Below are positions 1,013 through 20,752 of a stretch of DNA of 64,000 nt, piece by piece (positions within the stretch are counted from its first letter, which is position 1; each line of letters opens with the position of its first letter). Location: positions 768,001 through 832,000 of the forward strand of contig CM000430.1 in assembly GCA_000165345.1 (NCBI GenBank). Direction: 5' to 3'. The translations under genes and the position numbers were made by a program. Below the pieces are notes generated by a model, which did not search any database, was not told the DNA's origin, and saw only the letters and a program-made list of their open reading frames with translations.

Positions 1013-4000
1013 TCATTCTCTTTCTGACTCAAAATCTGAGAAATCTGGATCATCCATATTTTGACCCATTAATTTCTTCTCCTCTTTATTTTGACTTAAA
1101 ATACGATCTTTCTCAATCTCATTCATTAACTCTTCCCTTGATTTTACATGTACAAATTGCTCAAAATCTCCAATTAATGTTGTTGATAAACTTTCAGTAA
1201 CACTTGCAAAGAAATTCAAAGCTCCAAATAATGAAGAAAGTGCTATTCTAACAATTGCAAATATTAAAGTTAATACAAATACACTCTTTTTATTTGTTTT
1301 TTTAAAATTATCAATTGGTTCCCTATATAATAATATCCATGGTGTTATAAATGTATCCATAAACATCCCAACAATACCATTCCAAATTGCATCCAAAATA
1401 CTCTTTGGTCTTGGCCTTCTTCCTCCTAATAACTTATGACCAAAATTAAATATTACTGATGCTGTTTGAAATGCACCTCCTAAGAAATATCTGAAAAAAT
1501 GAATTAAACCAACTCTAAAACCTTGAACAAATCCTTCTAAAAATGTTAAATCATCATCTGTTACACCTCTTTTAATCTCAATAAATAATGCCTTAAATCC
1601 TCTCTTCATACCTGAATATATTGCTACCAAGTGTGTTACTCCTAAAGAAGGTAATACTCTTCTTTTTAATTGTCTTGAATATGATGAAACTAAAAAATGG
1701 AAGAATTCTGCAATATCAACCACTAATGCATCTTTATTAAGTGAACTCACATTTAATATCATATGTGGTGTATCTAATGGTAATATATTCATAAATAATA
1801 ATGCTTCTGGAGTTAATGTATCAATATCTATTGTATCATCTGATGTTCTTATTGTTATTGTTACTATTATATCACTAATTTTTAACGTTCTTATATATAA
1901 TGGTTTTCCAATCTTAAGTTGATCCCATGGTGTTCTAGTAATATACATTGGAAGTCCATATCCGCCTGATACATAACAAACAAGAGATCCTAAATAATTT
2001 GTTTCTCTATGACTTTTCTTTTTAATCATTTTTTGCCTTGTAGAATGCATCCATAATGTTTTTTGTCTTGAATATGTTATTATATTCATATTCTCAATTT
2101 CTTTTGAAATCATAAAATATAAAGTTTGAACTACAAGCCTTTCCAAATTACAACATATTTGTGATACTGTTATATTGATTTCATCAAATATTGGAGCATA
2201 TACAGGACTCATTAATGATCTAGATATTGTTAATGAAAAGAATTTACTTTCCAAATTTCTTATTCTATCATCCAAATTACCACTATTATTACGTTTTGAA
2301 TTACTTCCAATTACTTCGTATCCAATATCAATATCATCTTCTATCATATTTTCATTATTATCATATCTTTTTTTTCCTTTATTTTTCTTATTAAACTTAT
2401 TCTTTCTTATTAGTATATCTTCTTGAGCATTAATATTATTATTATTATTATTATTATTATTATTGTGCTCCAAATTATTCTTGTCCTTATCTGAATCAAT
2501 ATTTAAGTCTTCTAATATAGATAAATTACTATTGTTCATTCTATTTATTTTTGTACCCAAATTCTCATCATTATCACCTTCTTCATCCCATTCTGTCAAT
2601 TCAAAACCCTTTATTTGTCTTATACTTTCCGTTCTATCCAAATTCTGGTTGTTTGTTGAAGTTTTTAATATTACAGGAATATCTCCTGGTAGAAAGTGAT
2701 CAATATGAATCGAAGAAAGACCCAAATTTAATATTATTTTTCCGCTTGTAAGTAAAGTCTTCTCCATATAATTTGAAATTAAAACCACTATATTAATTAA
2801 TGAAACTAATACTCCATCATATATTTCATAATATTTTGTATTTAAATCTCGATAATCATGATGATTTATATTTGTCAAATCATTTGTCTCATCATCATCC
2901 TTATACAAAAATTGATCTAAAGTTCTTCTACTTTGGCTCTGAAATTCAGATCCTAATAACATTAATTCACTCTCAATTCTTTTTTTTCTTCCTCCTTTAT
3001 TTATCTCATTTCCATATAATTTTGAAATACTTAATCTTTTTTTGATATATTTTTCATTATTCATACAATCCTTATAAACTTTTCTCAACAATTTCAGTAC
3101 ATTATTTAAAATAGGATTCTCTTTTGGTGATACTGTTCCACCAATTGAATTCAAATTTCTACTTAAAAATTGATAAATCTCTTTAATTGTCTCACTTAAT
3201 AATTCAAATGTTCTTTCTTCTGAATTATCATCCAATATTGGAATTGTTTTATTATAAGAATTATAACTTATTGATGGAAAACTCATATTTTGTTTCATAT
3301 CTAATACACCCTCTTGTGAATATATATAACTTCCATTATATAAACCACTTGTTAATTCTACTCCTTCAATTCCATCTGATAGCTTTTTTTGAATCTCTTC
3401 ATTATTCTCATCTTCTAATTCTGAATCATAATAACTTAAATTTTCATTATTATCTCCATTTAATAAACGATCCATCAATTTTTTCTTAATTTTTTGTCCT
3501 TTTCTTTTTATATATTCAATCTTATTATGTTCTCCTAAGTTACCACTATTATATAATGACTCAAAATCACTAGCTCCATCTAATTGCATAGTTTTTCCAA
3601 AGATTTGTTTCTTCTTATTAGAATTATTGAATAAATTATTTACTCTATTAGTAAATAAAGCCATAATATTCATCTTATTACTAGAAATTGAAGATCTACT
3701 AGTATTTAAATGACTTTGGCTTATCAATTTAAGTTTTTCAATCTTAGATCCAATCTTTGGATTCTTATGATAATCTTTATCTTGAGAAAACCCAACTAGT
3801 TTGTAACATATATTCATTAATGAATCACAAACAATATTCAATATAGACATTGGATATATATTTTGAGGTATAATATTTACTGAGACATGAAATAAAGATC
3901 CATGAGTTACTAAAACTAGTTCATTTTGATGAATCCAAGAAATACTAGTTCTTGGAATAAAGAAAGATATTTTAAATCCAATCCATGAAATCTTTTTCCA

Positions 4001-20752: not shown

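Follow-up and report, generated by a model that had tools for sequence, protein, structure and literature searches.

A giant, highly diverged protein of probable VPS13-family membership encoded by a single-exon gene in Cryptosporidium

Introduction

The stretch of DNA analyzed here comprises 64,000 nucleotides of contig CM000430.1 (assembly GCA_000165345.1, positions 768,001 to 832,000, forward strand) and is referred to below as the window. Its minus strand carries a Cryptosporidium gene for a protein of 6,579 amino acids (aa), which is probably a giant, highly diverged bridge-like lipid-transfer protein (BLTP) of the VPS13 family; we put the probability of this reading at about 0.82. The protein lies in a VPS13-family paralogue clade found in Cryptosporidium, gregarines, and piroplasms. 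BLTPs make new membranes without vesicles. Lipid synthesis is minimal and organelles are reduced in Cryptosporidium, and its bulk lipid conduits, the VPS13-like gene among them, are therefore plausible vulnerabilities. The gene is an uncharacterised new member of an already known kind of protein, as giant VPS13-like proteins have been described in Plasmodium and Toxoplasma.

The gene and its relatives

According to the list of open reading frames (ORFs) and their translations, the gene is one uninterrupted, 19.7-kb ORF of 6,579 codons that starts with ATG and has a base composition of 27% GC (Table 1). A frame of this length cannot be due to chance because the first 24 kb of the window holds just one other ORF of at least 150 aa, two in all. 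In alignments, the start methionine coincides with residue 1 of Vps13 and all orthologues, and therefore the single-exon structure given in the original prediction, which was made from the sequence alone, is supported. The ORF is also collinear with the full-length orthologues of C. felis (6,255 aa), C. xiaoi (6,088 aa), and C. muris (5,992 aa). A gene fusion or an assembly artefact is ruled out by collinear orthologues in four other species and by the retention of both ends in piroplasm proteins.

Relatives were collected with HMMER, in an exhaustive search for which residues 1-1,200 served as the query. The 20 relatives found come from Cryptosporidium species, gregarines (Blabericola, Gregarina, Porospora, and Lankesteria), piroplasms (Babesia bigemina, B. 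duncani, and Theileria equi), and a few further assemblies and transcriptomes. Word-indexed homologue searches returned only fragments from C. hominis and C. canis, and a homologue search with the C-terminal alignment gave no matches. At its N-terminus, the protein shares 98% identity with the C. hominis TU502 fragment and 57-61% with C. canis, which identifies the window as Cryptosporidium DNA. Nearly all 20 relatives are annotated as “hypothetical.” The C. canis and C. xiaoi orthologues bear the UniRef label “Chorein N-terminal domain-containing protein,” and the C. felis orthologue is annotated as a “putative integral membrane protein.”

The Cryptosporidium orthologues span 5.5-6.3 kaa (thousand amino acids), and the piroplasm relatives, at 3.4-3.9 kaa, are near the canonical VPS13 length. 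Across this size range (3.4-6.3 kaa), both ends of the protein are common to the relatives and collinear. Local phmmer and sliding genus-profile searches identify two regions that distant relatives strongly share, residues 1-230 and ~6260-6545, together with small collinear islands at about 4050-4480, 5185-5515, and 5985-6040. One piroplasm relative, B. duncani KAK2195203.1, is named “bifunctional initiation factor eIF-4 gamma” and has an MA3 domain (3749-3855) after its VPS13-like C-terminus, most likely reflecting a gene-model fusion with a downstream gene.

The chorein-N domain

A family profile of the first ~260 residues of 11 relatives was searched against the sequences of the PDB. It matches the Vps13 N-terminal crystal structure 6cbc with E = 4.9e-15, residues 1-188 aligning on 1-189, and further matches are VPS13 (5.5e-14), VPS13A (7.4e-9), and VPS13C (2.8e-6). 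Individually, three of the 11 profile members reach Pfam VPS13_N and the protein alone falls short, while one family member weakly matches Pfam ATG2_CAD (E 0.009). The N-terminus itself is an amphipathic chorein-N helix, and the N-terminal 1,900 residues contain no hydrophobic segment.

The predicted fold points the same way. The AlphaFold2 (AF2) model of aa 1-1150 has a mean predicted local distance difference test score (pLDDT) of 41.9 and is usable only over aa ~30-230, where pLDDT is 65-83. When aa 1-230 of the model are compared with the PDB by Foldseek, six matches are significant (E 1.9e-9 to 5.5e-6, probability 1.00). Each is a crystal structure of the N-terminus of either Vps13 (6cbc) or Atg2 (6a9e/6a9j), and the next match has an E of 0.4. 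The best match is 6cbc (E 1.9e-9), and the Atg2 N-terminal domains match with E 2.5e-6. The chorein-N assignment is thus established by both the sequence profile and the modelled fold. Together with the VAB fold match described below, these results bear out the original prediction of a chorein-N, VPS13-like protein.

The VAB region

The VAB domain is made up of six β-sandwich repeats of ~100 aa, each with a conserved Asn at its start, and is found only in VPS13 proteins (PMC7068118). A VAB-type β-sandwich array begins near aa 4095 of the protein described here. In the B. bigemina orthologue, Pfam VPS13_VAB is found above its curated cut-off over exactly the residues aligned to aa 4400-4476, and T. 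equi has a sub-threshold Pfam VAB match at the same place. Only one of the nine family members matches the Pfam VAB model. The alignment of the region across nine taxa reveals two invariant residues, Asn 4138 (“IENATN”) and Asn 4464 (“VTNSLPFP”), whose positions match the published rule of one Asn per repeat (PMC7068118). The Asn of the motif h-x-h-x-N-x-[STL] is kept in all five Cryptosporidium sequences, and a third copy lies at Asn 5263. Conservation within the genus peaks at 4801-5000 and 5201-5400, and an island at about 5185-5250 is common with Babesia.

The AF2 model of aa 4040-4720 (predicted TM-score 0.51) consists of β-rich blocks with pLDDT 70-83 and disordered inserts between them. 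Its only two Foldseek matches at E <= 0.001 are both chains of 7u8t, the Vps13 VAB structure (4.6e-5 and 1.5e-4). Motif conservation and the model both indicate that the protein carries a VAB domain. Downstream of it, conserved islands are seen at about 5460-5515 and 5985-6040, and stretches 5701-5800 and 5901-6200 are variable within the genus. Profile slices from this post-VAB region match a transcriptome-derived relative (P0009), the piroplasms, and Porospora collinearly.

The C-terminal module

Conservation is strongest in aa 6260-6545, a module that is 88-90% identical to C. felis and matches the Babesia and Theileria proteins with E 1e-36 to 1e-39. A profile of this module finds only two PDB matches at E <= 10, VPS13C residues 3403-3485 (E 0.0013) and VPS13A (E 0.0043). 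Both matches lie in the Gly-rich helical region near the C-termini of these proteins, that is, at the equivalent position. Pfam ATG_C gives no match. The module also holds amphipathic stretches and a strongly hydrophobic helix, whose 19-residue Kyte-Doolittle maximum (2.45) is the highest of the protein and whose mean Eisenberg hydrophobicity is 0.6-0.68. Hydrophobic segments occur in the whole protein at aa 1950, 2256, 5974, and 6488 only. The module is presumed to be the end that binds the acceptor membrane.

A C-terminal PH-like domain after the ATG2-C region is typical, though not universal, in the VPS13 family. Here, just 34 acidic or variable residues follow aa ~6545 before the stop codon, and the relatives end at the same point. 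No Pfam match to a PH domain is found in the protein, which does not exclude a PH-like fold elsewhere in it.

The middle region

Between the two ends, aa 231-4039 have 11-65 identical residues per 100-residue bin within Cryptosporidium. In gregarines and piroplasms, only small islands of this region are detectable, up to about aa 700, and the rest is mostly unalignable outside the genus. The AF2 model of aa 1-1150 contains roughly four groove-like units whose strands are parted by helices and loops, at pLDDT below 50. By analogy with the rest of the family, we infer that the ~3,800-residue middle may form a lipid groove.

Table 1. Coordinates of the VPS13-like gene and of the features within it, in positions of the window.
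Feature	Position	Strand	Basis or remark
Complete single-exon coding sequence, 6,579 aa plus stop codon	1013..20752	-	ORF list, translation, collinear full-length orthologues
Chorein-N domain, aa 1-230; predicted N-terminal lipid-entry end of VPS13/ATG2 type	20063..20752	-	Profile, AF2 and Foldseek
Middle region, aa 231-4039; putative repeating β-groove rod with long loops	8636..20062	-	Genus conservation, low-confidence AF2
(ACT)8 microsatellite, T8, aa 1794-1801	15350..15373	-	Not conserved in orthologues
Interrupted AAT/AAC array, N8 and N7, aa 2827-2842	12227..12274 (array to 12314)	-	Not conserved in orthologues
Mixed GAG/GAA tract, E18, aa 2952-2969	11846..11899	-	10-residue Glu run in C. 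felis; none in C. xiaoi, C. muris
VAB domain, N-terminal part, aa 4040-4720; two predicted β-sandwich repeats	6593..8635	-	Asn 4138, Asn 4464
Invariant Asn 4138 (codon)	8339-8341	-	Opens a VAB β-sandwich repeat
Invariant Asn 4464 (codon)	7361-7363	-	Opens a VAB β-sandwich repeat
GC-rich island with 6-bp inverted repeat, coding KMASGLKLPALVGN in VAB repeat 2	7282..7337	-	GC 0.61
GC-rich island coding genus-conserved SRLRRVYRREFAALIQF	7032..7076	-	GC 0.59; peptide conserved across Cryptosporidium orthologues
Probable VAB remainder, aa 4721-5300; third Asn motif, Asn 5263 (codon 4964-4966)	4853..6592	-	Motif and conservation
Post-VAB region, aa 5301-6259; presumed last groove units, variable linkers	1976..4852	-	Profile slices
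(AAT)10 microsatellite, N10, aa 6097-6106	2435..2464	-	Absent in C. felis, C. xiaoi, C. muris
Most conserved module, aa 6260-6545; last strands and ATG2-C-like Gly-rich helices	1118..1975	-	Orthologue identity, profile
Strongly hydrophobic helix, aa 6488-6518; membrane-inserting or transmembrane candidate	1199..1291	-	Hydropathy

Size and low complexity

Yeast VPS13 has 3,144 aa and the human proteins have 3,174-4,388 aa. The protein described here is about twice as long, as the original prediction held in calling it far larger than canonical VPS13. Such a size is, however, not unusual for Apicomplexa, in view of PfVPS13L1 (5,988 aa) and of the Cryptosporidium orthologues. The same prediction described the protein as riddled with homopolymeric inserts coded by pure microsatellites and saw in it a case of inflation by low-complexity expansion. 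Tandem Repeats Finder and a direct count identify eight homopolymer runs of at least 5 aa (T8, E6, N8, N7, E18, S5, E5, and N10). Of all residues, 1.6% belong to runs of at least four and 3.3% (218 aa) to strict low-entropy windows, so that “riddled” overstates the case. Microsatellite-coded tracts do exist, but only T8 and N10 are coded by pure arrays; the others are mixed or interrupted.

That microsatellite expansion inflated the protein is barely credible and is refuted by these counts: trinucleotide-coded, species-specific homopolymer tracts are present and one Asn/Ser run is a residue different in a C. hominis fragment, but low complexity reaches at most 3.3%, only 306 residues (4.7%) are species-specific, orthologues without the tracts still have 5.5-6.3 kaa, and about 88% of the first 6,026 residues can be aligned to the protein of the distant C. 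andersoni, which is partial and ends there. The few repeats, the C. andersoni alignment, and the large orthologues together make the size a conserved property of the genus that resides in non-repetitive sequence. The doubled length relative to yeast and human VPS13 thus comes from non-repetitive, genus-conserved insertions. By analogy, these insertions are most likely loops that protrude from the rod. What makes proteins of this kind so large in the genome is conserved non-repetitive sequence and not microsatellite bloat.

The repeat tracts themselves sit in variable linkers. At aa 270-278 (about 19920-19945), C. hominis TU502 has SNSNNNGFFSKI compared with SNSNNNNSFFSKI here, the one-residue length difference noted above. 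As C. hominis is a very close relative, the low-complexity tracts may be polymorphic between close relatives.

GC-rich islands and neighboring features

Two GC-rich islands and an inverted repeat (GCGGGC...GCCCGC) within the coding sequence had also been singled out. Both islands are present, with the peaks listed in Table 1, but the GC content over the intervals first proposed is 0.49 and 0.585, and 16 islands of equal strength, these two included, occur within the 64-kb window. The inverted repeat exists but is unexceptional (z = -1.09), as 28 of 200 shuffled sequences fold as well; this z-score rules out the hairpin as a structured element. Both islands and the hairpin are ordinary coding sequence within the VAB region.

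A C-rich tract with GC up to 0.63 lies at 945-1002 of the window, 11 nt beyond the end of the ORF, whose stop codon occupies 1013-1015. Read on the mRNA strand, the tract has the sequence GGGGGAGGGTGAAGGTAGGGAGGGG, with four G-runs separated by loops of 1, 8, and 1 nt, and is therefore G-quadruplex-like. This tract is in the presumed 3' untranslated region and is striking amid surroundings of ~25% GC. On the other side of the gene, two motifs containing GGCGCC, TTGGCGCC and GGCGCCAAAA, are found at ~21060-21075 and ~21485-21500, within the divergent intergenic region of ~1 kb upstream of the start codon. We take these motifs to resemble the E2F-like motif that is reported to be over-represented upstream of Cryptosporidium genes.

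The genes neighboring the VPS13-like gene are ordinary eukaryotic ones (WD40, F-box-like, bromodomain, BOP1, and SNF2 helicase), and no tRNA or Rfam family is found anywhere in the 64-kb window. One neighboring gene recurs with identical sequence on two records of ~0.99 Mb, CP044421.1 (GCA_015245375.1) and CP029781.1 (GCA_031892065.1). The divergent neighbor, at 21812-26560 on the plus strand, is an ORF of 1,582 aa with no Pfam match. Its true ATG start probably lies further downstream, as the ORF list gives a TTG start. A second giant ORF (45906-57800, plus strand; 3,964 aa) is large and uncharacterised and has no Pfam match at E <= 0.01. At 37770-40626, public gene calls place a Peptidase_S8 (subtilisin-like) gene beside a 694-aa ORF, and no ORF of at least 200 aa is listed for this stretch in the window. 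An intron may interrupt the Peptidase_S8 gene, or its start or end may differ.

Proposed function and alternative identities

The working model for the protein follows family analogy, from which its lipid transfer, localisation, and partners are deduced. As in VPS13 and ATG2, the chorein-N end would dock at a donor membrane, probably the endoplasmic reticulum (ER), and take up glycerophospholipids. The ~3,800 residues between the ends would form a long hydrophobic β-groove along which phospholipids slide. The VAB domain would bind an organelle-specific adaptor, and the amphipathic and hydrophobic helices at the C-terminus would insert into the acceptor membrane or hold it. The best explanation for the doubled length is that of PfVPS13L1, canonical groove units plus protruding stretches.

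Several results weigh against membership in the VPS13 family. The hmmscan check suggested with the original prediction failed on the protein alone, which was scanned in four pieces and gave no Pfam match at E <= 1; phmmer searches of its N-terminal 800 aa and C-terminal 700 aa against PDB sequences found nothing relevant. With a 1,150-residue profile, homology to solved VPS13 structures ends at ~residue 190. In the middle region, AF2 predicts long paired strands (such as 616-629, 666-697, and 1106-1137) but with pLDDT below 50 past residue 230, and a crude amphipathic-β moment statistic over the rod shows no enrichment (z = -1.2). The TM-scores of the VAB Foldseek matches are low (0.24-0.30) for a model that spans only the first two or three of the six expected repeats, and a sequence profile of the VAB region has no VPS13 match in the PDB. 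The ATG2-C match is weak (E about 1e-3), though specific and positionally right. Because only 34 residues follow the C-terminal module, a C-terminal PH domain of the usual kind would not fit at its canonical place, and a strict regular expression finds no FFAT-like motif. The absence of Pfam matches for the protein alone, set beside the profile and model matches, means that only profiles and structure models reveal the family. This gives the result some value for annotation, as the members of the clade are nearly all “hypothetical” and are missed by standard domain searches, but caught by profiles and models.

Within the VPS13 family, the clade could represent a distinct, so far undescribed paralogue with a lineage-specific role. 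On this account, the PH domain was lost and the ultra-conserved module with its transmembrane-like helix became a permanent anchor in the acceptor membrane. Taken as a whole, this combination is tentative and rather unlikely. If it were true, the protein could serve membrane building in Cryptosporidium, such as that of the inner membrane complex in merogony or of the feeder-organelle or parasitophorous membranes. The extra ~2.5 kaa, being conserved in the genus, would then carry regulatory or partner-binding loops and not filler.

A different possibility is that the protein is a chimeric or novel giant with VPS13-like ends, whose middle is not a lipid groove but, for example, a scaffold or tether; it would then tether membranes with no bulk lipid transfer. 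Direct evidence for a groove ends at residue 230, and the middle has twice the canonical VPS13 length and is mostly unalignable outside the genus. However, in the low-confidence AF2 model long paired strands alternate with helices in the manner of groove units, and every characterised protein that combines chorein-N, VAB, and ATG2-C is a groove protein. The relatives of 3.4-3.9 kaa have the canonical VPS13 length. In addition, PfVPS13L1 is doubled likewise, by loops around a canonical rod of 12 units (PMC13036008). A middle region that is not a groove is therefore improbable.

Two further identities within the wider group of groove proteins fare worse. ATG2 combines chorein-N with ATG2_CAD/ATG_C, lacks a VAB domain, and has about 1.6-2.3 kaa. 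It is highly improbable that the protein is the Cryptosporidium ATG2 orthologue, feeding autophagosome-like membranes, even though Foldseek matches the Atg2 N-terminal domains, one family member weakly matches ATG2_CAD, and the C-terminal helices appear to be of a type common to ATG2 and VPS13. In sequence as in fold, the best match is Vps13 and not Atg2, and no ATG2 chain appears among the PDB sequence matches. The VAB domain has been reported only in VPS13 proteins (PMC7068118), and a preprint reports that Toxoplasma has a TgATG2 of its own (bioRxiv 10.64898/2026.07.16.739079). The presence of VAB, the length of 6,579 aa, and the lack of an ATG2 chain in the PDB matches place the protein outside the ATG2 family.

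It is just as hard to assign the protein to BLTP1/Csf1/Tweek, BLTP2/Hob/Fmp27, or BLTP3/SHIP164. Groove architecture and large size are common to all of these families, and the annotation of the C. felis orthologue as an integral membrane protein could be taken as a point in their favor. BLTP1 (Csf1/Tweek) and BLTP2 (Hob/Fmp27) have an N-terminal transmembrane anchor before the groove. The protein described here has no such anchor, its hydrophobic segments being confined to the four positions given above, and the N-terminal 1,900 residues free of them exclude it from BLTP1 and BLTP2. Moreover, every match in sequence or fold is to VPS13 or ATG2, and the VAB domain is present.

Comparison with known systems

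Membership in the VPS13 family invites comparison with apicomplexan bridges described recently. Two VPS13-like proteins were reported in 2026 to be essential for the inner membrane complex of daughter parasites (PMC13036008, PMC13298984). Plasmodium has six VPS13-like proteins, among which PfVPS13L1 (PF3D7_1346400) is an essential bridge from the ER to the inner membrane complex; its 5,988 aa include the canonical 12 groove units, and the surplus residues lie in stretches that protrude from the core (PMC13036008). In Toxoplasma, there are 8-11 VPS13 candidates, and TgVPS13A (TGGT1_291180) is a lipid bridge from the ER to the inner membrane complex (PMC13298984). The Toxoplasma paper mentions a Cryptosporidium orthologue, GY17_00001497, an identifier different from that of the gene described here (PMC13298984), and a C. 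parvum typing paper deals with two other, shorter VPS13-like genes (PMC12446620).

The protein resembles PfVPS13L1 and TgVPS13A in its giant size (6,579 aa compared with 5,988 aa in PfVPS13L1), its chorein-N start, its predicted VAB domain, and its putative ATG2-C-type helices. As in these proteins, the excess length appears to consist of non-core insertions and not of extra domains (PMC13036008, PMC13298984). Unlike PfVPS13L1, in which a PH domain binds PfAegerolysin, the protein has no C-terminal PH domain, and it differs from both proteins in lacking an FFAT-like motif by regular expression. None of the 20 relatives that the N-terminal 1,200 aa retrieved is a Plasmodium or Toxoplasma protein. 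Given this and the missing PH domain, orthology to PfVPS13L1 or TgVPS13A is not established.

ATG2 offers a more distant parallel. It has the chorein-N fold and, probably, ATG2-C-type helices in common with the protein, but it is far shorter and lacks VAB, and the protein matches Vps13 more strongly than Atg2. The canonical VPS13 proteins (yeast Vps13 and human VPS13A-D) are closer. Alignment with them begins at residue 1 and covers the N-terminal 190 residues (E 4.9e-15 to 2.8e-6). The VAB fold with its conserved Asn and, by a weak match, the Gly-rich C-terminal helices are likewise found in both. In contrast to the canonical proteins, the protein described here is ~2x longer, escapes recognition by Pfam, has no C-terminal PH domain, and has one strongly hydrophobic C-terminal helix.

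The closest counterparts are in its own clade. The orthologues of C. felis (KAF7457543.1), C. xiaoi (KAK6590870.1), C. muris (CMU_003800), B. bigemina (XP_012768156.1), T. equi (BEWA_027410), and Porospora (KVP18_000956) have both ends conserved, and their VAB and post-VAB islands are collinear with those described here. The piroplasm members of the clade have 3.4-3.9 kaa, whereas the Cryptosporidium members have 5.5-6.6 kaa.

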